Virus record (IMG/VR): IMGVR_UViG_3300043416_000076 | Span: 915 to 64,914 of that record | Strand: one strand, 5' to 3' | DNA length: 64,000 nt | Origin: a virus | Lineage: Duplodnaviria; Caudoviricetes | In this document: in pieces, positions 8,428 to 50,054 of the stretch | Position numbering within the stretch: position 1 is the first letter of the stretch | Layout: each line of letters begins with the position of its first letter | Position numbers and translations under genes: made by a program | The notes under the pieces: generated by a model | Told to the model about the DNA's origin: nothing | Database searches by the model: none | Seen by the model: only the letters and a program-made list of their open reading frames with translations

Positions 8428-11400
8428 ATGGCAAACCCCTTTGCAAAATTTGCTCAGCCAGAGGTAGAGCAAAACCCATTTGCTCAGTTTGCCCGTCCGC
8501 AGGAAGAAACAGCCGCGCCTCAAAAACTAACACAACCACAAGAAACCACATCAAACCCACTCATTGGGTTGGTTGGCCGCACAGCTTCTTTAACCGGCGC
8601 TTTTGTAGATTCCGTGGCTGAGGTTGCCGAACGAGTCGGTGACAAATTGGAATTGGCTATGCCGTTGTCAGGCATACCCGCAGAAGACATCAAAAACAAA
8701 AAGCAGCTTCAGCCCCTGTTTGACTGGGCTAAATCGTTAAAAAATTATGATGAAAGCTTAGGCTACCAGCCAAGTACACAACTCAAAGAGTTAGGCAGCA
8801 ACCCACTTAATACTATTTTTTTTGTTGCCGAACGGGTAATAACGTCCGTGCCCGATATGGTTGGCGCAGTGAGAGCGCCTGTTGCTTACGTCATGGCGCG
8901 TACAAAAGAAATTTTGGACGAGCGCGTTAAGAACGACGAAAAAACGCTTGACGATGCTACTGTCGCAGACGTAACCGCTGCGGCTACCGCTGCTGTCATT
9001 GAGTCCACACTTGAACGCTTTGCCACCAAAGGTTTGTTCAAGCCCACTACCGCCAAAACAGCCACAGGCAGGATTGCCAAAGAAACAGGAATTCAGGCAG
9101 GTACTGAAGTTGTTGAAGAAGAAGCTGCGTATCTTGGTGAAGCCGCAGGAACTAAAAAAGGTCTCAGTGCAGAAGAAGCGTTAACTCGCGGTGCTGAAGC
9201 TGCAATCGTCGGTGGTGGTCTCGGTACTACTGTACAGGGCGCAAAGGAAATCTTTGCCCCTGAAAAGCCGCAGTCGGTTGAAAAGCAACGACAAACAATT
9301 CTTGACAGTTTGGCCTCTCAAGAAACAGGAGAACCCGCCGGTCTATTTGCAGATCAAGAAGGTGGTAAACCCGCTGGACAGCCCGGCCAAGAATCTCAAG
9401 TTGATCTTTATGCACAACGGGCTGCGGATGCGTTGGAATCCACAAACGCTATTGCGGGAAGAGGCGCTACTGTATCTGCAAAATACGGTGACGCAGATCA
9501 AACACTGCCGCCATCCAATGAACCTGCCGGATTGTTTGAAGACGTAGATACCGGCGCTGCTGCCACAACAACTCCCAACGCACCCGGTACTCCTGCCGCA
9601 CCTGCGTCGGCACAAACCCTTGAGGCCTACGGTGATTTTGTACGCCAGTACACCGACCTGAGAGACGAATACAACTCTCTACCTATGGGCCGGATAGATC
9701 AAGCGGGCATGAACCAGCGTGAGTTAATCCTAAAAGATTTGGCCGGAGTTATAGATGCCAACATGGGGCTTATCCGTAACAGGGGTGTTGCAGCGCAACT
9801 TAAAAACCCAATGTTTGACGGCTCGACGGTGTTGGCCAGACTTGAGCCAAATGCTGGCCAGCCTCGTGCAATGCAGGGTAACTTGTTTGGCGTGTTCCAA
9901 GCAGCTACCCGCCGCATGAAAAATGCTATGGCGTTGTCTGGGCAAAGTGTAGACGGGGCGATCACAGAGTTAGAAGATAACCGTGTCCGCATCCAAGAAA
10001 AGATTGACTCTGGTGGGTTTGATGATGCAACTATCATCAGTATGCGCCCCGCTGGTATGTCGTCTGGCCAAGCTCTCAAAAGTCGAGACTCAATCCTCCA
10101 AAACTTTTCACAGCGGTCAAACGCCGAGATTGATCAGGCGATTGATATGTTGCGTAGAGGTGTTGGCCAGCCCCGTGCGATGCAGAGTAATCTGTTTGGT
10201 TCGGAAGAACCGGAGGACAAACCCAAACCCAAACCACAAAAAGAACAAGTTGAAGAAGACTTATACGAAGACGAAGATAAAGAAGAAGTAAGGTACGACC
10301 AAAAAGGCAATCCTATCCGTGCGCCAAAAGTAGATACGGAACATGTTCCGCAAACAGAAGAAGGCGGCAAAATCAAAGGTTTCTTTGATTCCATCCAGTC
10401 TGTTTCTAATTCTCCGGCGGAACAAGAGCGTCACGGCAATTCTAGAAATACCGCTGCTGACACTATGCTGGAGTTTGATATTGCCCAGCCGGGCGAGACG
10501 ACCAGCGCTGGTGCACAGCAGATGCTCGACTATCTTGCCCGTCGTGTTGGTGGCCAAGAAAAATTAAACCAATTACTAGACGCGCTACAAAACGCAGACC
10601 CAGAGACGCAATCAGACTTACTAAAAAAAGCTGGGTTACCGGACATGACAGCACGTCGTGGCATGGATGAGTTCAGTTCACAGGTGCAGGAATATGTAGA
10701 CCAGATGATGGGTACAGGGGAAGGCCCGCTGTTTAATATAAGAACAAGTAAGATGCGCCCGTCAAAAGTTACTGGCACAAAAATACCGTACCAAGAAACA
10801 ATAACTACGGGTGCAATGGTAACCAGCGCCTACGCAACACCAAAAGGCGGCAAACCCCGCGAGCCAAGCCAAGCAATACGTGATGTAGTTCGTGACATAA
10901 ACGATAACAAACTGCGCCCAGCAGCTTTGATACTTAAGCAGATGATCGGCGGCAAGGTTTCTGCACAAGCCCAAGCTGCCATCACGTACTTGACCAATTT
11001 GAACCGGACTACATTTGGAGATGCCCTCAGAGATTTGGCGTTTGATCTTGCCTATTTTGAGGTAAACCGTAAACACTATGGCGCTGGTTCAACCTTTTAT
11101 AGAGAAGGTGGCGAGTACGCAAAAGACTTCCGTGCGTGGATTGCGGCTAACCTAGACCCATCTACATTGGAGTTGCTAGATGAGTTGGTTGCCGAGAACA
11201 AACAGAACGCTGGGGCAAAGAAAGAATATAGAAAAGCCAAGGCTGAGTACAACAAGCAGCTCAAAGCTCGAGTTGAAGAAGAAGGCGACAGAGCAGAGAA
11301 GAATGGGGCAAAGCTACCAAAAGCCCCAAAGAGAAAAAGAGAGCGCATCTCCAAGAAAATGTTGACGGAGATGGAAACGGAAGCGGGTGAAGGAGAAGAA

Positions 11401-14400
11401 GTTCTCAGTCCAACCAGAGAAATAAATCTGGAAAATATACCTTCTCTTGAGATGCTGTATGACGTGCATCCGGCTATTGTTAGGGAACTGGAAAAGGGCA
11501 ATACCCGTAAAGCGCTTGAGCTTCTTGCGCAAACAAAGAACAGCAAGTATTACGCCGAACTTGCGCAGCGCCTGCTAGATACTGGGTTCACAGCAAAAAC
11601 TCGTTTGATCGAGGCGGACAAGTTAGAGTCCCTATCAAACAACCCGCAGATTACAGAATCACTTAACGAGCGCTTGGATGCTCTGCGTGATTTGGTTGTT
11701 GCGCTGTACCCCCAAGAGCAGCAAGCAGCAATCATAAAAGACCTGAAGTCGGGTAAGTTACGCAATTTAATATTTGCTCTGGACACAATCCAAGACACAC
11801 TGAGTAGCAACAACGGCACTGAGTCCAATCAGCAGCTTCTTGACAGCGTTATGGACATAGTGGACAAGGAGTTTGCGTGGGATGGTAAGTACGATCCTGC
11901 AAGCGACACCATTGTCATGCGTCAAGGCAATAGCAAACTCACCAATCATTTGTTGTTGCATGAAACTGTTCACGCAGCTTCATCGTATTTGATCGACAAT
12001 GCTGACAAACTGGTTGGCATACAGCGTCAAGGTTATGAGCGCCTTGAAGAGTTGTTTAAGTACTCCAAAGATATGATGAATCAACAGGGGGTGACAGACA
12101 ACCCTTTCTACGGTTTACAGGACTTACATGAGTTTGTGGCCGAGGCGTTGACAAACCCCAAACTGCAAGCCGTGTTGCGCTCTTACCGGTACAAGGCTTC
12201 TTCGTTCTCTCTTTGGAATCGCTTTACTGATTCTATAAGCAAGATGTTTAAAGTGAAGCCCGGCGAGCCAAGCAACGTCATGGCCGAAGTCATGTTTGCT
12301 GCTGATGCAATGATGGCCGGTACGATGTCTTTGCAAGGTATGAATGAAGTGGGTGGGACTATCTCAGGGCCACCCGCGCCAAGAGCGATGGCCACTCAAA
12401 GGTCACCAAGAACTGTGCCCAAGGGCATGCCAAACCAACCGTCCACAATCAAACGTTGGATGATGGCCAGTACGTGGGCCAAAGGTAAGATGCGTGAGAT
12501 ACGCAGTATGGATTCGGCTGCACGCGGCGCGTATCTGGGTATGTTGACGTTACGCCAAATCAATGACTTGGTAGCTGGACGTATACCGCAGATAAACAAC
12601 TTTATTAACGTGGCGGAAAAGTTTCTGTCCCGCAAGTCACAGATACTTAAAGAGTCTGGTGACATATCTCGCAAGTGGGAACGCCTGCAAGCAGCTGATC
12701 CAGACATGTCACGACAACTTGGTGTTGTGATGCACAGCGCAACTATTTTAGAAGTTGATCCAGACAAAGCTACGTCTGCTCAACGGGCTAAAAATCCTGA
12801 GTTAATGAACAACTGGAAACAGTTAGACCCAGAAGCAAGAACTATCTACAGAGAAGTTCGTGATTTCTACGAGCGTCGGTACAGTAATTACAAGCGCCTC
12901 ATGAACCAACGCATCATATTTATGCGGAATATGGGCGTGTCTGAGGCATCAATCACAGAGATTCGTAACGAGTTTGAAAAGGGTAAACGGGCGGGGCCTT
13001 ACTTCCCACTGATGCGTTTTGGCCAATATTGGTATCAAATTGGTAAGGGGGCAAACCGTGAGTACTACATGTTTGAATCGCAGGGCGCAAGAGAAGCTCA
13101 CTTGCAAGCCCGTCTGGATCAAGAACCTAATAAAACTGCCCGCGATGCTTTAGAACAAACTATTGGCACAAACATAGGTGATGACTACCAGAAACAAATG
13201 GACTTGCACGCACGTCAATCTGAGTTTTTAAAGAATTCATTTGCTGCTGTAGACGGTATGAACATGGCGGGTCTTACACCAGCTGAAGCTGATAAACGTA
13301 AGACTGAATTAAAAGATAACTTGTACCAGACGTATCTGGCCAACCAGCCAGATCGCGGCATACGTAACGCCTTCATACACCGTAAAAGTGTTGCTGGTTA
13401 TTCTGAAGATGCGTTGCGCAGTTTTTCATCGTCGTCATTCAGCATGGCTTATCAGATGTCACGGTTGGAGTACTCCCCAGAGATGTTCTCCCAGCTTGAT
13501 GCCGCACGGTCGCAGATAAAAGGACGCTTTACCGCCGGTGCAAAATACGATGAAGCGCTTACCGCTGAGAATGATGAACTGCGTAGTTATGTCCGAGAGA
13601 TTGATAATCGTCTTGGTGCAATACTTAACCCGGAAGATACCGGCAAGTGGACATCGTACTTCTCAAACATAGGGTTTGTCTACTACCTAACTTCAATTGG
13701 CTCCGCGCTTGTCAACGTGATGGGCGGCGTAATGATTGGTGCACCAACGCTGATCGGTCAACAGGTTCGTGCAAATCCCGGTATGAGTTACGCGAGGGCC
13801 ACTGGCCGTGTTCTATACAACATGGGTAAAACAACCGCTGAAATCATGGCTACTGGTTTTGGTATTGAAGCTGGCGGGCGTGTAATAGACTCACGACTGT
13901 TATCTCCTTCGCTTGAAAGATCAAAAAGTCTGTCAACGATGGACAAGGCGGCATATAACCGTTTTGTTGCTGATGGCATTATTGATATAACCGCAGCTTA
14001 TGACCAGTCAGGTTTGGCAGCTAATCCAACCTCTGAGTACAACAGCATACCTAACCGGGCCATGCAGATCGTGGCCTACGCATTTCACCACGCTGAGCGG
14101 TTCAACCGTGAAATCATGGCCATGTCTGCTTTTAGATCGGCTATGGAGAAGAGGGCAAACTATCCCAACAAACAACAAGCGTTTGCGGAGTCAATTGCCG
14201 AAGCCAAAGACTTGACCCAACGGGCCATGTTTGATTACTCGTCAACCAACAAGCCACGTTTCTTGCAAAGTTCTCTGGCCAGAATTGTTCTCCAATTTAA
14301 ACAGTTCCCGCAGCAAATGACTTGGTTCTTGGCCCGAAACGCTTGGAACACATTTGGTAATTTACCCGAAGCAGAAAAACGTGAAGCCCGCGCCCGCTTT

Positions 14401-15312
14401 GTTGGCACGATGGGCATGGCGGCTATCTTCTCTGGAGTCACTGGTCTCTGGGGCTTTTCGACTGTGGCGGCTATTGTTGAAGCTTGTGCGGCTTTTGGCG
14501 ACGATGAGGACGAACCACCGTTTGATTTTGAGCTTGAGTTTGCAAATTGGGCGGTCAATACGTTTGGTGAAAACATGGGGACTATGGTGTCACGCGGTAT
14601 TGGCAACGCTGCCGGTGTTGATCTACATAGTCGCTTGAAACTTGACGGTATGTGGTTTAGAGACGGGCGAAATAATTTAGACGCGGAGGCTCAAGTAGAA
14701 GCTTTTCTGGTGGGCATACTGGGGCCAACAGTTGGCCTTCTACCAACCGCCGCTCGTGCCGTAGACCTATACAAAACAGGCCATGCTGATAGGGCGATTG
14801 AATCAATGTTGCCCGGGTTCGTTAAACAACCCGTAGTTGCCGCACGGTACGCGCAAGAAGGCGCTCGGACTATGCAGGGTGACATCATGAAGAAGGAGTT
14901 CTCTCCTTTTGAGTTGATGATGCAGGGATTGGGTATACGACCCGCTGACCTTGCGGAGATTCAGTTCCGAAACATCAAGGTAAAAGGACAGGAGCAGGAG
15001 ATACTTAAAAAACGCCAGAATGTGTTAAACATTTTTGGGTTGACTGTCATGACCAACGATGAAGAGGGAACACAGGCGGCGATCGAGAAAATAATAAAAT
15101 TCAACACCAAGTATCCTACGCTCGCAATAGACGTGGACACCATCTTCAAATCTATAGAGGGCAAGTTTGAAAAGTCAGCGCAAACTGACCACGGCCTGTA
15201 CATTGACCCCAAGCTGCGGTACTTATTTACGGATACTTACATTCAAAAAATAACGGAGAAAGAGAGTAAAAGCTCCGCTGAAGAAAATCCGTTCGCTAAG
15301 TTCGCACAATAA
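8428..15312 (+). CDS. Giant polyvalent / ejection protein with zincin metallopeptidase and PLxRFG domains
   Basis: 2294 aa; HETVH (11959-11973) plus downstream HEFVAE; PLMRFG (13006-13023); helical C-terminal region with a hydrophobic hairpin. Confidence 0.8.
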   Translation: MANPFAKFAQPEVEQNPFAQFARPQEETAAPQKLTQPQETTSNPLIGLVGRTASLTGAFVDSVAEVAERVGDKLELAMPLSGIPAEDIKNKKQLQPLFDWAKSLKNYDESLGYQPSTQLKELGSNPLNTIFFVAERVITSVPDMVGAVRAPVAYVMARTKEILDERVKNDEKTLDDATVADVTAAATAAVIESTLERFATKGLFKPTTAKTATGRIAKETGIQAGTEVVEEEAAYLGEAAGTKKGLSAEEALTRGAEAAIVGGGLGTTVQGAKEIFAPEKPQSVEKQRQTILDSLASQETGEPAGLFADQEGGKPAGQPGQESQVDLYAQRAADALESTNAIAGRGATVSAKYGDADQTLPPSNEPAGLFEDVDTGAAATTTPNAPGTPAAPASAQTLEAYGDFVRQYTDLRDEYNSLPMGRIDQAGMNQRELILKDLAGVIDANMGLIRNRGVAAQLKNPMFDGSTVLARLEPNAGQPRAMQGNLFGVFQAATRRMKNAMALSGQSVDGAITELEDNRVRIQEKIDSGGFDDATIISMRPAGMSSGQALKSRDSILQNFSQRSNAEIDQAIDMLRRGVGQPRAMQSNLFGSEEPEDKPKPKPQKEQVEEDLYEDEDKEEVRYDQKGNPIRAPKVDTEHVPQTEEGGKIKGFFDSIQSVSNSPAEQERHGNSRNTAADTMLEFDIAQPGETTSAGAQQMLDYLARRVGGQEKLNQLLDALQNADPETQSDLLKKAGLPDMTARRGMDEFSSQVQEYVDQMMGTGEGPLFNIRTSKMRPSKVTGTKIPYQETITTGAMVTSAYATPKGGKPREPSQAIRDVVRDINDNKLRPAALILKQMIGGKVSAQAQAAITYLTNLNRTTFGDALRDLAFDLAYFEVNRKHYGAGSTFYREGGEYAKDFRAWIAANLDPSTLELLDELVAENKQNAGAKKEYRKAKAEYNKQLKARVEEEGDRAEKNGAKLPKAPKRKRERISKKMLTEMETEAGEGEEVLSPTREINLENIPSLEMLYDVHPAIVRELEKGNTRKALELLAQTKNSKYYAELAQRLLDTGFTAKTRLIEADKLESLSNNPQITESLNERLDALRDLVVALYPQEQQAAIIKDLKSGKLRNLIFALDTIQDTLSSNNGTESNQQLLDSVMDIVDKEFAWDGKYDPASDTIVMRQGNSKLTNHLLLHETVHAASSYLIDNADKLVGIQRQGYERLEELFKYSKDMMNQQGVTDNPFYGLQDLHEFVAEALTNPKLQAVLRSYRYKASSFSLWNRFTDSISKMFKVKPGEPSNVMAEVMFAADAMMAGTMSLQGMNEVGGTISGPPAPRAMATQRSPRTVPKGMPNQPSTIKRWMMASTWAKGKMREIRSMDSAARGAYLGMLTLRQINDLVAGRIPQINNFINVAEKFLSRKSQILKESGDISRKWERLQAADPDMSRQLGVVMHSATILEVDPDKATSAQRAKNPELMNNWKQLDPEARTIYREVRDFYERRYSNYKRLMNQRIIFMRNMGVSEASITEIRNEFEKGKRAGPYFPLMRFGQYWYQIGKGANREYYMFESQGAREAHLQARLDQEPNKTARDALEQTIGTNIGDDYQKQMDLHARQSEFLKNSFAAVDGMNMAGLTPAEADKRKTELKDNLYQTYLANQPDRGIRNAFIHRKSVAGYSEDALRSFSSSSFSMAYQMSRLEYSPEMFSQLDAARSQIKGRFTAGAKYDEALTAENDELRSYVREIDNRLGAILNPEDTGKWTSYFSNIGFVYYLTSIGSALVNVMGGVMIGAPTLIGQQVRANPGMSYARATGRVLYNMGKTTAEIMATGFGIEAGGRVIDSRLLSPSLERSKSLSTMDKAAYNRFVADGIIDITAAYDQSGLAANPTSEYNSIPNRAMQIVAYAFHHAERFNREIMAMSAFRSAMEKRANYPNKQQAFAESIAEAKDLTQRAMFDYSSTNKPRFLQSSLARIVLQFKQFPQQMTWFLARNAWNTFGNLPEAEKREARARFVGTMGMAAIFSGVTGLWGFSTVAAIVEACAAFGDDEDEPPFDFELEFANWAVNTFGENMGTMVSRGIGNAAGVDLHSRLKLDGMWFRDGRNNLDAEAQVEAFLVGILGPTVGLLPTAARAVDLYKTGHADRAIESMLPGFVKQPVVAARYAQEGARTMQGDIMKKEFSPFELMMQGLGIRPADLAEIQFRNIKVKGQEQEILKKRQNVLNIFGLTVMTNDEEGTQAAIEKIIKFNTKYPTLAIDVDTIFKSIEGKFEKSAQTDHGLYIDPKLRYLFTDTYIQKITEKESKSSAEENPFAKFAQ

Positions 15313-15579: not shown

Positions 15580-18406
15580 CGCCTTGCAGGTCAATACTGG
15601 GTGCAACCCCCAACAAATCAGAGTCAAACTCCAAGGCCACCACCGGTGGGGCGCTGATGTCTGTGCCAATGTCCAACCGGGTACGAACCTCGGCGATGAA
15701 CGCGCCCGTCTTGTTCAAAGCGGTCAGCAGGTCGGTGAACGTGATCTGCTTAAGTACACAGAAATCTTTGAGCGACTGGCGGATGATGTATATACGGCGT
15801 GTATCTGGCTCGTACCGGACAACCAGCGCCCCACGGGGTAAGAGCAGCGGGGCGGCGGCAATCCCTGACTTGGAACTGCTGTACTTGTTGACCACCAGAA
15901 TGTTCAGGTTGTGCTTCAGCAGGAACTCACCAACGATGGTGGCGTAGTCATTGAACGACAGTCGGGTGGTTGACTGCATGTCAGAAATCTCGGCTACCGC
16001 CCAGTCAAAAACTCGTTTGTGGTTGATGCTGTGCAGCCCTAGCTTGTGAGCAATCATCCCGCCCGTCAGATTTGCTGCCGCCATCCCTGACCAAAAGCGT
16101 TCTCGGGTGTCTATGTTTACGGCTTTGTCGAATCTGACCTGCACCTTCAGCGCAAGGTCAACAATCTCCTCTAGATTCTGCACAAGGTACTGAGCGTATG
16201 GCAGGCCAGCCAAACCGTAGTTACTGTGCAAGCGACCAAATACTTGCTTGGCCGAAGCCTTGTCGAGGTTGTTGGTTGGGTCAATCTTGTACTGCATCAA
16301 GCGCATCAGCTCGCCTTCTGAGGTTGACTTCAAGGACTCCAGCTTGTCGGTCATACTGGAGTTGGACGTGGCCACCATCATGGTCGCCCAGAATCCTTGA
16401 GACTCTCGCTCCTCATTGGAGGATGCTTTCATTCGGCGGCGCGGTGCGCCCTGCGTCACACTGTAGGCCAGATCAGAGAAATCATCGCCACTCATCTTTG
16501 TGATCTCATCCACACCCAAGGGTAGATTGCACATGACTGCCATACGGTGAAGCTTGACGTTCAGGGTATCTTTCCATTGCAGCATCAGTTCGTCGGGGTG
16601 ACCCCACACGCTGTTCATAACCTGAAGTATTGTTGACTTGCCTGTTCCAGATTTATTATTTATAAGGTTGATGATGCCGCCCTTGATACCCATAAATTTG
16701 ATAAGCGGTGCGCCAAATGCGGAGAATACTGCGAAGGCGTGTGGCTCAAAACCCGGCATATCGTAGACATTGATAATCTCTTTCCACTCGTCCAGCGATC
16801 CCGTAGGTCGTAGGGCGTGGGCAATATCCCGTGTCGCCTTGGAGGGTGGGCTGTACTTAACATAGCTCGCCCCGATCTCTCGGTTTCCAAGAATAAATTT
16901 CTCGTCATCATCAGCCCAACCAAATTGCAGCCTCATCATCTCCACCTCTTGTGTTATTTGTAGTTCTTTCGCACATTGCATCAGGTAATCTAGAATCAAA
17001 GCCATCTGGTTCACGCCAGCAATGACACCGTGGAAAGAAACGGTCTTCCTCAATTCGTCCTTACTCAGTGCATCTACCAACGGCACAGAAAATTCTTTGG
17101 CTCCATCCCTCGGGAGTACCCGCCGAATCAGGATCGTTTCGCCCAACGCGGGGTCGTACATCCGCTTGGTGACGAACAGGTCGTACTCATAAACAAGAGC
17201 AACTGAGGGGCCGTCACCATCATCGTTGTCTTCCTTCAAGTGTTTGTATATACCGCCGCTTTTACCGCGAAAATACCTATCTGGCAACTTAGGTACTACA
17301 AATTCAGCGGGCGCTACGTCCTTGCTTGTGGACTGGTACTCGATTACTTCCCCAACTTCGGATTTGGCGATCTCATGGCCAAGCACGATGGGCGATTTGA
17401 TCTTCCCCCGGTGATCGCACTTGTCGCAGATGCCCGGTGCGAAAGAATCAAATGTGTCGCAGGTGTAGGGGCCTTTGATCTGGCTGGCCTTGCGTTCCGT
17501 TGATGATGCGTCGTACTTCGGGTGGTTCTTGGATATCAGGTGAATCGCTTTGTCACGGTCTACGCAATGCTGGGCGATTGACAGCCCCGCCCGCCATAGA
17601 GGTTCCTCAATATTCTCCTGATCCTCAACTACCATACGCAACTGCTCGCAGCCAGACCCGTTTGCGGTCTTCTTCAGGATGGTGCGAAACCGCGATTGCT
17701 TATTACCAATAACGGCTTTTGTGAAGTCGTCTAATTCCTTGGGAGCATAAGGCTTCTTCACATCCACCAACGGCCCCATGCGTTCGGCAAAGTCTTCAAA
17801 CGTCATGGGCTGGGACAGATGCATCAAGACAACATCGTGCGGTGGGGTGTCCTTAAAGTTCTTTGTCCCCGGAATCCGCAACACCCGCGCCGCATCTGCT
17901 GGCACAGCGGGGTCAATAATGAACTTGTGTTCGAGGCACTTGGCCTTGAAAGTCTCAGCTACGGGTAACCACTTATCCTTGGCCACGGATTCGGTCAGCG
18001 GCCAGTAGACATGCCAGCCACGGCCAGAATTTACAACCGTTGGCCGGGGTAAGTTCATGATTTTGCACAGTTCTTTGAGTGCTTGCAGCCCTGTGGCCTG
18101 ATCCACATACCCTCTGATACGCCCACGTTTGTCGGGCTTGGCCTTATCCTCGCCGCAGTCAATGTCCAAGAAGAACGACTTCAGCGACCCGCAGTTGGAT
18201 GCGTCTCGGTTCTCATCAGTAATGAACTTCCCGCAGCCAAAGAATACATCTACGCCGTTGGCCACCAAATGGTCAGCTTCGGCTTCTACCTCTTGTATTG
18301 TTTTATGGTGGGTCTGTGAATGGTGTGTGCCATTCTTCAACCCCAGTACACAATAGAACCCTTCCTCTGAAGGGACTACTGCTTCAAGCAAACGAACATC
18401 CGCCAT
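15569..18406 (-). CDS. Primase-helicase: AEP/RepB-type primase N-terminus, Cys-rich linker, DUF927-like helicase
   Basis: FFLDID, NSGRGWHVYW, RVLRIPGT primase motifs; C..(x)..CDKC; Walker A SGTGKST. Start taken at ATG 18406. Confidence 0.85.
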   Translation of the reverse strand: MADVRLLEAVVPSEEGFYCVLGLKNGTHHSQTHHKTIQEVEAEADHLVANGVDVFFGCGKFITDENRDASNCGSLKSFFLDIDCGEDKAKPDKRGRIRGYVDQATGLQALKELCKIMNLPRPTVVNSGRGWHVYWPLTESVAKDKWLPVAETFKAKCLEHKFIIDPAVPADAARVLRIPGTKNFKDTPPHDVVLMHLSQPMTFEDFAERMGPLVDVKKPYAPKELDDFTKAVIGNKQSRFRTILKKTANGSGCEQLRMVVEDQENIEEPLWRAGLSIAQHCVDRDKAIHLISKNHPKYDASSTERKASQIKGPYTCDTFDSFAPGICDKCDHRGKIKSPIVLGHEIAKSEVGEVIEYQSTSKDVAPAEFVVPKLPDRYFRGKSGGIYKHLKEDNDDGDGPSVALVYEYDLFVTKRMYDPALGETILIRRVLPRDGAKEFSVPLVDALSKDELRKTVSFHGVIAGVNQMALILDYLMQCAKELQITQEVEMMRLQFGWADDDEKFILGNREIGASYVKYSPPSKATRDIAHALRPTGSLDEWKEIINVYDMPGFEPHAFAVFSAFGAPLIKFMGIKGGIINLINNKSGTGKSTILQVMNSVWGHPDELMLQWKDTLNVKLHRMAVMCNLPLGVDEITKMSGDDFSDLAYSVTQGAPRRRMKASSNEERESQGFWATMMVATSNSSMTDKLESLKSTSEGELMRLMQYKIDPTNNLDKASAKQVFGRLHSNYGLAGLPYAQYLVQNLEEIVDLALKVQVRFDKAVNIDTRERFWSGMAAANLTGGMIAHKLGLHSINHKRVFDWAVAEISDMQSTTRLSFNDYATIVGEFLLKHNLNILVVNKYSSSKSGIAAAPLLLPRGALVVRYEPDTRRIYIIRQSLKDFCVLKQITFTDLLTALNKTGAFIAEVRTRLDIGTDISAPPVVALEFDSDLLGVAPSIDLQGDAD

Positions 18407-18433
18407 ATTGTGTCCAAGCACGTCAAAGAGAAT

Positions 18434-18490
18434 GGGGGGCGACAGGGGCTGACGGTTACCCCGTTCGCTCCGTCGAGCTAGTCACCCCCC
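18434..18490 (-). ncRNA. Putative structured leader RNA upstream of the primase-helicase
   Basis: 10-bp closing stem (one G-U), two internal hairpins whose loops are complementary (GACG / CGUC); sits between the HTH stop and the primase ATG. Confidence 0.55.
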
Positions 18491-18497
18491 GGAAAAA

Positions 18498-18719
18498 CTA
18501 GCGACCCAAAAAAGTTGCAATGTCTTTCTGGTGATTTGCGCTGGGTACGTGGGTTCCGAAGAACCAGTTGTACACAGTCTGCTTAGTCACACCAAAAGAC
18601 TCCATGACATAGGCAACAGGGATGTCGTTGGAGATGCAAAACCTCCCCAGACGAACACCCAAGTTCTTTATGTCAGCCGCTTTATTGAGCCGCGCAACTT
18701 TCTGGCTGTATCCAATCAT
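18498..18719 (-). CDS. Small HTH DNA-binding protein (XRE/Cro-like)
   Basis: FGVTKQTVYNWFFG HTH signature; start ATG 18719 overlaps the upstream stop. Confidence 0.75.
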   Translation of the reverse strand: MIGYSQKVARLNKAADIKNLGVRLGRFCISNDIPVAYVMESFGVTKQTVYNWFFGTHVPSANHQKDIATFLGR

Positions 18720-19606
18720 TTGTCGTCGTCGCCCCACTCATCGACCAACGCAGAAAGGTTCTGCTTGGGCTTGACTTCAGGCGTAGCTTTCTTCTTCTCT
18801 GGCCGTACTGTGGGTTCCGGCACTTCTTCCTCTGCTTTAATTTCGGCGGCGGCAGACCCAGCCGGTGCAACCAACTTGGGAATCACAGGAGTTTCCTGCT
18901 TCTTAGTGAAGTTCATCTTGCCCGCATTGACAGCGACCTGCGTCTGCCCTTGGGCTACAGCGACTTGGTAGGTGTCCTTATCAAGGAACTCCGCGTTGCT
19001 AAACACCAGCTTGGGGAAATCGCTGTCGGTGTCAAACGTCAGGCGAGTGGCCAACATGTTTAAGTTGTAGCCTGAACTGGCAACGTACTTGGCGTATTGC
19101 AAGAACGGCATGTGGTCAACGTCGGCAGTACCGAAGATACTCTTTTGTGGCAGGATCAGTTGGAAGATGTCGCCGCCCACGTTGTTGCGCAAGGTAACAC
19201 CCAAACGCCATGAGTAACGGCAAGCCGCACGACCGGGGCCACCCGCACCTTTGATAGCTTGCGGGCAGTCCTTGCAGGTAGATGCTTGCGGGCCTTCAAC
19301 ATCCGCATCAGGGCGCTCACCATCGCTCGACCAGCAATCAGGGATTGAAGTCTCTTCGGCGTTGTACTCAGATGCGTAATACGACTTCTGCACAGTCTTG
19401 CTACCACTGACGATCACAACGTCCATGTGTGGCTCAACGTTCTTGGCAATCTCCTTGCCACCATCGACCAGACGGAAGACACGCCCGCGCAGTGTGATGC
19501 GCTTGACGCTACCACCGGATGAGGTGAAAGCTTTTGTAAAGTCATCCAGCGCCACGTTCTGCAAGTGGGCGGGAAGGTTCTCACGGTATGGGGTTACGTT
19601 GCTCAA
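18716..19606 (-). CDS. Putative ssDNA-binding / annealing protein
   Basis: Replication-module position; PDCWSSDG..PD, CKDCPQ..G....ACRY Cys cluster; acidic aromatic C-terminus (DEWGDDDK). Confidence 0.5.
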   Translation of the reverse strand: MSNVTPYRENLPAHLQNVALDDFTKAFTSSGGSVKRITLRGRVFRLVDGGKEIAKNVEPHMDVVIVSGSKTVQKSYYASEYNAEETSIPDCWSSDGERPDADVEGPQASTCKDCPQAIKGAGGPGRAACRYSWRLGVTLRNNVGGDIFQLILPQKSIFGTADVDHMPFLQYAKYVASSGYNLNMLATRLTFDTDSDFPKLVFSNAEFLDKDTYQVAVAQGQTQVAVNAGKMNFTKKQETPVIPKLVAPAGSAAAEIKAEEEVPEPTVRPEKKKATPEVKPKQNLSALVDEWGDDDK

Positions 19607-49997: not shown

Positions 49998-50007
49998 GAA
50001 GACTGAG

Positions 50008-50035
50008 AAGGGGGCCTTGTGCCCCCTTTTCTTTT
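50008..50035 (+). terminator. Intrinsic terminator after the capsid gene; its loop also reads as a -35 (TTGTGC-17 bp-TATATT at 50017-50045)
   Basis: AAGGGGGC-CTTGT-GCCCCCTT followed by TTCTTTT. Confidence 0.8.
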
Positions 50036-50054
50036 GATGTATATTGAACGCATT

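Follow-up and report, generated by a model that had tools for sequence, protein, structure and literature searches.

A structured RNA in the leader of the primase-helicase gene of this phage is almost certainly a member of the int-alpA family (Rfam RF02996). It lies on the minus strand of the window, by which we mean the whole 64,000-nt stretch analysed here (positions 915 to 64,914 of IMG/VR record IMGVR_UViG_3300043416_000076; Duplodnaviria; Caudoviricetes); this viral record is 64,914 nt long, carries direct terminal repeats and is covered almost entirely by the window. The match runs from 18488 to 18421 (minus strand), spans model positions 1-71 of 71 and scores 39.0 bits against a gathering score of 35.8. 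RF02996 was the sole above-threshold Rfam match in the window, and no second or divergent int-alpA copy was found there at E values up to 5. An earlier note on this DNA, made from the sequence alone, had described the compact fold and had proposed an Rfam search. That search identifies it as a motif of phages and mobile elements that is already catalogued. The fold is real and conserved, and the window holds a new copy of it.

The int-alpA motif was catalogued in the Weinberg et al. 2017 survey (PMC5737381), the main text of which contains no discussion of it. Rfam types RF02996 as 'Gene; sRNA'. In the searchable literature we found no functional study or experiment on any member, and the name occurred only incidentally, in two papers, as a gene order or as an entry in an sRNA table.

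Fold and parts of the element

The letters at 18490-18434 (minus strand) match the transcription in the earlier note, and the three-way junction described there, a 10-bp closing stem around two hairpins, is the minimum-energy fold at those coordinates on the minus strand. Folding of 18500-18425 (minus strand) gave -36 kcal/mol (z -3.55), a stability reached by 1 of 200 dinucleotide shuffles, with the three-way junction making up 78% of the ensemble. The plus strand of the same interval adopts a different and weaker fold. Because of this weaker fold, and because several pairs are G-U only in the minus-strand reading, the strand assignment holds. The interval 18434-18490 that had been assigned to the element contains the junction but is too short at the 3' side: it leaves out the partner of loop 2 (18425-18421), and the functional unit extends to the start codon. 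From 5' to 3' the parts are as follows.

18498..18500, minus strand: UAG, the stop codon that ends the upstream 79-aa HTH ORF; 7 nt separate it from the 10-bp P1, 9 nt from position 1 of the Rfam model
18491..18497, minus strand: U-rich spacer UUUUUCC from the stop codon to P1; most family members have a GUUU/UUU tract here
18481..18490, minus strand: P1 5' strand GGGGGGUGAC, based on the fold and on clade and family covariation
18480-18479, minus strand: junction UA before P2
18467..18478, minus strand: P2 hairpin GCUC-GACG-GAGC, 4 bp, whose loop is the conserved GACG tetraloop of the family
18463..18466, minus strand: junction J2/3, GAAC, one nucleotide shorter than the family consensus GAAAA
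18445..18462, minus strand: P3 hairpin GGGGU-AACCGUCA-GCCCC, 5 bp with an 8-nt loop; pseudoknot letters CGUCA at 18454-18450
18444, minus strand: junction U between P3 and the P1 3' strand
18434..18443, minus strand: P1 3' strand GUCGCCCCCC, pairing with 18490-18481
18426..18433, minus strand: linker AUUCUCUU, 8 nt, G-free and pyrimidine-rich
18421..18425, minus strand: site A, UGACG, pseudoknot partner of loop 2 (-6.5 kcal/mol) and end of the Rfam match
18410..18421, minus strand: putative rudimentary P4 hairpin GUG-CUUGGA-CAC, with a weak Shine-Dalgarno (SD) sequence GGA in its loop
18404..18406, minus strand: AUG at which the 945-aa DUF927 primase-helicase starts, 27 nt downstream of P1 (26-45 nt in the family)

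The RF02996 model consists of a three-way junction followed by 22 positions past P1, of which the last six align with UUGACG. The window copy agrees with the consensus in its three-way junction, its junction letters, its GACG loop and the pairing of its 3' tail with the P3 loop; it also lies in phage DNA, immediately before the start of a gene. The conserved letters C-UA-G, a GACG-type loop 1, CGAA..G and CUG, taken from the model and 65 members, are all present. The copy differs from the consensus in having GAAC rather than GAAAA at J2/3, GGGGU/GCCCC rather than GCGGG/CCCGC in P3, and a longer P1 (10 bp). Its P4 hairpin has only 3 bp, where typical members present the SD in a hairpin of 4-7 bp; it is not conserved throughout the clade, and its loop is not complementary to the P3 loop.

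We also considered a tRNA or tRNA-like gene and rejected it: ARAGORN found none in the phage, and the D-arm-like UAGCUC...GAGC is probably a coincidence.

The fold is conserved in relatives of the phage and across the family

We collected 21 viral contigs encoding the same primase-helicase at 69-100% identity; these form the clade referred to here. In the clade alignment 98% of cells were paired and the RNA core was invariant, while sequence just upstream of the RNA was unalignable between clade subgroups. Two P1 pairs, 7 and 8, have two-sided substitutions (U-G/C-G/U-A and G-C/G-U/A-U); covariation in homologues had been proposed as a check, and it is seen in these compensatory changes. Beyond the U-rich tract, the non-coding box UGACGUGC is invariant in the clade save for one A-to-G change, and it contains the UGACG that is complementary to loop 2. 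In relatives with a deletion of 2 nt, the GTG at 18421 is not in frame. A megablast search of the phage collection gave no match to near-identical known phages.

The wider family was drawn from three sources. A pattern scan of viral contigs yielded 12 real members, and a similar scan over prokaryotes, with each species represented by a single genome, yielded 35; both of these samples held the GACG loop and the GAAAAG junction fixed. A third sample, free of pattern bias, came from searching 300 sampled genomes with the Rfam model and comprises 30 places. In these searches int-alpA was present in 4/151 and 13/151 genomes, the latter figure being that of one proteobacterial class. One proteobacterial genome (G186) holds four copies on four contigs (L088, L100, L105, L106), each scoring 67-76 bits.

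In an alignment of 66 family sequences the three nested helices were 91% paired, compared to 67% after shuffling, and 16 of 17 pairs showed compensatory changes (covariation score 0.60 versus 0.16). For P1, compensatory changes were seen in 7 of 8 pairs. Every well-parsed member shares an anatomy that extends past the junction: P1, linker, site A, P4 hairpin and start codon. The linker is mostly 5-10 nt long with 4% G and 75% pyrimidine, and in many members it is C-rich. Site A comprises 4-8 nt complementary to the P3 loop. The P4 hairpin begins 0-4 nt after site A and has 4-7 bp and a purine loop of 5-9 nt that holds the Shine-Dalgarno sequence. The start codon follows 0-5 nt after the hairpin and 26-45 nt after P1 (62 members).

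Loop 1 is GACG in most members and otherwise UAGCU, CUGAUC, AGCGCA or similar. The loops that are not GACG (L084-L087, L090, L093, L094, L096, L097, L102-L104) nearly always contain a self-complementary tetramer, AGCU, GAUC or GCGC.

Loop 2 very probably pairs with the 3' tail rather than with loop 1

In the window, loop 2 (CGUCA) is complementary to site A (UGACG), which lies 8 nt beyond P1, with a pairing energy of -6.5 kcal/mol. The only two pseudoknot substitutions in the clade, A-to-G in site A and C-to-U in loop 2, both still pair as wobbles. Across the family the letters of the two partners vary together: CCUUC/GAAGG, CCUAC/GUAGG, GCCCA/UGGGC, UCCUCG/CGAGGA, ACAUCC/GGAUGU, UCAUUCC/GGAAUGA and CCGCA/UGCGG are among the loop/site-A pairs.

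Because MAFFT loses register in the variable linker, we chose an alignment-free test that compares the duplex energy of each P3 loop with its own tail to that with permuted tails. For 50 distinct loops from about 65 diverse members, counted regardless of kinship, the mean energy was -7.0 kcal/mol with own tails and -3.9 +- 0.2 kcal/mol with permuted tails (z -14; 0 of 5000 permutations). With kinship again ignored, the difference was repeated in the sample found by the Rfam model only (z -7.3) and among loops that are not anti-SD-like (z -7.4). On the strength of these comparisons, this element very probably forms a pseudoknot between the P3 loop and the 3' tail.

The earlier note had instead proposed that the junction is locked by kissing of loop 1 and loop 2 (GACGG with CCGUC), in an RNA specific to the replication initiator and possibly a primer or self-cleaving. 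The 5-nt complementarity is present and invariant in the clade, and as free strands the kissing pair is stronger than the loop-to-tail pair (-8.2 versus -6.5 kcal/mol). However, loop 1 is a closed tetraloop: since its four nucleotides are closed by a C-G pair, a 5-bp kissing helix would need P2 to be melted. Loop 1 variants such as UAGCU, CUGAUC and AGCGCA are not complementary to their own loop 2, which is already accounted for by site A. Across the family, complementarity of at least 4 nt between the two loops occurs at chance level, in 3 of 50 distinct loops versus 1.26 +- 1.08 after shuffling. The GACGG/CCGUC match is best explained as a by-product of a clade pseudoknot that uses CGUC/GACG. 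As the downstream genes of the family are generally not initiators and no ribozyme family was matched, we consider this model very improbable, and the tail pseudoknot takes its place.

Gene context of int-alpA elements

As the earlier note had described, the RNA is flanked by the HTH stop codon (18500-18498) upstream and the ATG of the primase-helicase (18406) downstream. The upstream ORF encodes 79 aa with a weak Cro/CI-type HTH and is not AlpA-like, and no tyrosine integrase (PF00589) was found in the 64.9-kb phage. The context that gave int-alpA its name, a tyrosine integrase and an alpA-type regulator on a mobile element, is thus lacking here; it is not a defining feature. Other viral members also have no nearby int and carry capsid or HTH genes upstream. 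The commonest setting, found in 16 of 44 members, is an upstream ORF for a P4-type tyrosine integrase, and the gene order in these islands is int, RNA, a gene of unknown function, then HTH. Compared to this typical context, the window copy follows a small Cro/CI-like HTH gene and precedes an essential primase-helicase rather than an island gene.

One such island lies on the E. coli G749 chromosome NZ_CP014488.1 (L107). There int-alpA occupies 3983764-3983851, with a tyrosine integrase before it and a hypothetical 293-aa gene after it; the latter precedes a 72-aa HTH regulator, and the RefSeq record annotates no RNA at this place.

The genes downstream of family members are mutually unrelated and include endonuclease VII, HNH nucleases, a methyltransferase, the present primase-helicase and many proteins of unknown function of 180-350 aa. 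Because of this diversity int-alpA is not primase-specific, and we reject primase-specific autoregulation. Control specific to the initiator protein, as put forward in the earlier note, does not hold for a family whose members precede many kinds of gene. The copy studied here fronts an essential replication gene of an apparently non-temperate phage, which shows that the motif is a general-purpose leader and not an accessory of integrase and alpA.

A same-strand upstream ORF of at least 90 codons that ends at most 90 nt upstream was present in 56 of 68 members (L026-L106, e.g. L027, L042, L088). In 27 of these 56 the distance from its stop codon to P1 is 6-9 nt, and in 35 it is 6-14 nt, usually with a GUUU tract in between. 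A spacing of 6-9 nt puts P1 at the mRNA entrance of a terminating ribosome and equals the spacing of frameshift and readthrough pseudoknots. No sigma-70 promoter was found just upstream of P1 in the window. A -10-like 'nATAAn' box before P1 in many members was examined as a candidate and discarded; it consists of the stop codon of the upstream ORF plus the GUUU spacer.

Proposed role in translation initiation of the next gene

The earlier note had proposed a structured minus-strand RNA in the primase-helicase leader with a cis-regulatory role, and the fold and the start-codon distance make this the best reading. A role as replication primer, which it had also raised, found no support. On balance we favor a role in cis on translation initiation of the next gene, here the primase-helicase. 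This proposal draws on sequence comparison, namely on the constant distance to the start codon, on the SD hairpin that abuts the pseudoknot, and on a second complementarity of the P3 loop, to the SD sequence.

That second complementarity is a property of the family. Complementarity between the P4/SD loop and the P3 loop is greater within a member than between members (z -9.3 overall and z -4.9 among loops that are not anti-SD-like; kinship ignored in both), and the P4/SD loop shares longer words with site A than expected by chance. These data suggest that typical members may be two-state anti-SD switches. The P3 loop would pair either with site A as a decoy, giving the pseudoknot with the Shine-Dalgarno sequence free in the P4 loop, or with the SD loop itself, turning translation off. 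Candidate triggers for such a switch would be a ribosome terminating just upstream, a protein, dimerisation or the order of folding. If the loop does toggle between a decoy and the ribosome-binding site (RBS), the family would be a common and portable translational control module of mobile DNA.

The two-state switch is not evident in the window copy, in which P4 has 3 bp, the Shine-Dalgarno sequence is weak (GGA) and there is little complementarity between loop and SD. Loop 2 pairs with the SD zone at -3.4 kcal/mol, compared to -6.5 kcal/mol with site A. Since the SD-side pairing is this weak, the window copy may be a more static gate. In its leader the ribosome-binding region would be kept docked in a defined structure, and this would restrict translation of the primase-helicase or couple it to the upstream gene, so that primase-helicase synthesis could be set independently of translation of the upstream HTH gene or be handed on from it. 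With no SD-side pairing to consider, the phage clade offers a simple test case.

For the window, the analysis is mostly a clarification: the structure is genuine and a copy of a catalogued orphan motif, and the kissing detail was wrong. The family itself merits attention. It is structurally elaborate and widespread: members were found in 13/151 genomes sampled from one proteobacterial class, in numerous phages and in islands with P4-type integrases.

Alternative explanations and similarity to known RNAs

For the clade of this phage the main rival is a branched intrinsic terminator or attenuator, in which P1 and the U-rich tract would partly stop transcription between the HTH and primase-helicase genes, setting the ratio of the products and perhaps freeing a short RNA. 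The fold is very stable, and the 10-bp P1 has six G-C pairs at its base. Clade linkers (AUUCUCUU, UUUCUCUU, AUUUAAU and the like) have U in at least 5 of 8 positions or are A+U-rich, and the Rfam consensus includes a weakly conserved U run after P1. However, such a tract is found in a minority of the family: of 63 members, 18 carry 5 or more U among the 8 nt that follow P1, and 10 contain a run of 4 or more U; the family linker is better described as G-free and pyrimidine-rich, often with much C. Nor would termination explain why the pseudoknot covaries, why an SD hairpin is present or why the start codon lies at a fixed distance, and the scan tool makes no terminator call here because the loop is branched. 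We regard termination as an unlikely function of this element and not as a property of the family.

A second alternative is a trans-acting, immunity-type sRNA with the logic of C4 and CI RNAs, in which the junction is released from the leader by processing or termination, leaving the P3 loop free to base-pair with complementary sites in other transcripts, ribosome-binding sites among them. In C4 of phages P1 and P7, a' and b' pair with a2 and b2 at the icd RBS; in CI of satellite P4, seqB pairs with seqA and seqC. Int-alpA resembles these RNAs as a structured RNA encoded in the leader of a phage or satellite early or replication operon, and, in the family, in having one loop with two complementary targets of which one covers an RBS. 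The analogy to P4 CI drawn in the earlier note applies to this logic only; the window copy lacks the RBS site, and no C4 or CI antisense RNA model matched at E values up to 10 in 17500-19500 or up to 5 in the whole window. Unlike in C4 and CI, both target sites of int-alpA lie downstream within 40 nt, so cis pairing is the simplest reading.

The sRNA type assigned by Rfam is in line with a trans-acting RNA, and P1, closed like an acceptor stem, might be a substrate for RNase P or RNase E. Yet an RBS and a start codon then follow at a fixed distance in nearly every member, which fits a cis element. Within the window, 8-mers complementary to loop 2 occur at chance (53 versus 51.5 expected), and the SD sequence of the primase is not complementary to loop 2. 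Overall, we consider a trans-acting role improbable.

Under a third alternative the element would serve structure or stability and would not switch. It could insulate the downstream cistron against RNase E scanning, Rho or sliding ribosomes, or it could dimerise through the GACG loop. In its favor, the topology matches class 1a xrRNAs of flaviviruses, the stop codon sits at mRNA-entry distance, and loop 1 is GACG or contains AGCU, GAUC or GCGC. GACG tetraloops contribute to RNA contacts in retroviral packaging and dimer linkage; the tetraloop is identical in these otherwise unrelated RNAs, and such contacts differ from the loop 1-loop 2 kissing in the earlier note. Together with the self-complementary tetramers of the non-GACG loops, the retroviral contacts suggest that loop 1 may self-associate between two leaders. 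However, what is shared with xrRNAs is secondary-structure topology only, and a stability element gives no account of an SD loop that covaries with the P3 loop. We give this explanation little weight compared to translational control.

Class 1a xrRNAs and int-alpA are alike, in topology only, in the P1-P2-P3 junction, a pseudoknot between L3 and S4 just 3' of P1, and a P4 hairpin; the pseudoknot has 2-7 bp in xrRNAs and 4-8 bp in int-alpA. For the small 5'-end pseudoknot PK1, which closes the ring in xrRNAs, the analogue would be pairing between the U-rich 5' flank and the A-rich J2/3; J2/3 hardly varies, so that covariation gives no readout. Unlike xrRNAs, int-alpA lies between two translated genes and not in a 3' UTR, and it has neither sequence similarity to them nor an Rfam match. 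An Xrn1-type exonuclease, the usual target of xrRNAs, has no obvious counterpart in the likely hosts; to our knowledge, gammaproteobacterial and betaproteobacterial hosts generally have no 5'-to-3' exonuclease.

Recoding pseudoknots for -1 frameshifting and readthrough offer a further comparison. Like these, int-alpA places its structure 6-9 nt after an A-site codon, here the upstream stop. Unlike these, it lacks a slippery sequence; in the window, the reading frame beyond the stop is closed after 13 codons, and the downstream gene has its own SD sequence and start codon.

Because the fold topology equals that of class 1a xrRNAs, we keep, as a distant prospect based on analogy, a mechanical reading. 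A knot-like RNA with xrRNA topology and a stacked P4, at the mRNA entrance of the ribosome terminating on the upstream gene, might act as a directional roadblock that shields the downstream cistron, or might retain that ribosome close to the structured RBS and pass it to the next gene, with loop 1 coupling two leaders. If so, int-alpA would be a bacterial and phage counterpart of the mechanical RNAs of eukaryotic viruses and of termination-reinitiation elements.

Other features of the window

Roughly 30 nt into the primase-helicase ORF, at 18359-18374 (minus strand), there is a terminator-like hairpin, CCCUUC-AGAG-GAAGGG followed by UUCUAUUG, which may have arisen by chance or may serve as a second checkpoint on the gene. 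At 50000-50047, a hairpin region behind the capsid gene gave sub-threshold Rfam matches to STnc320 (25.7 bits) and ctRNA_p42d (23.1 bits; E 1.6), which are probably just a terminator hairpin. On the plus strand, 8428-15312 encodes a 2294-aa ORF whose C-terminal 900 residues match PHROGs for DarB-like antirestriction and giant virion proteins. Since the preceding ORFs match a DNA ejection protein and a virion structural protein, the 2294-aa product is probably an ejected giant protein.
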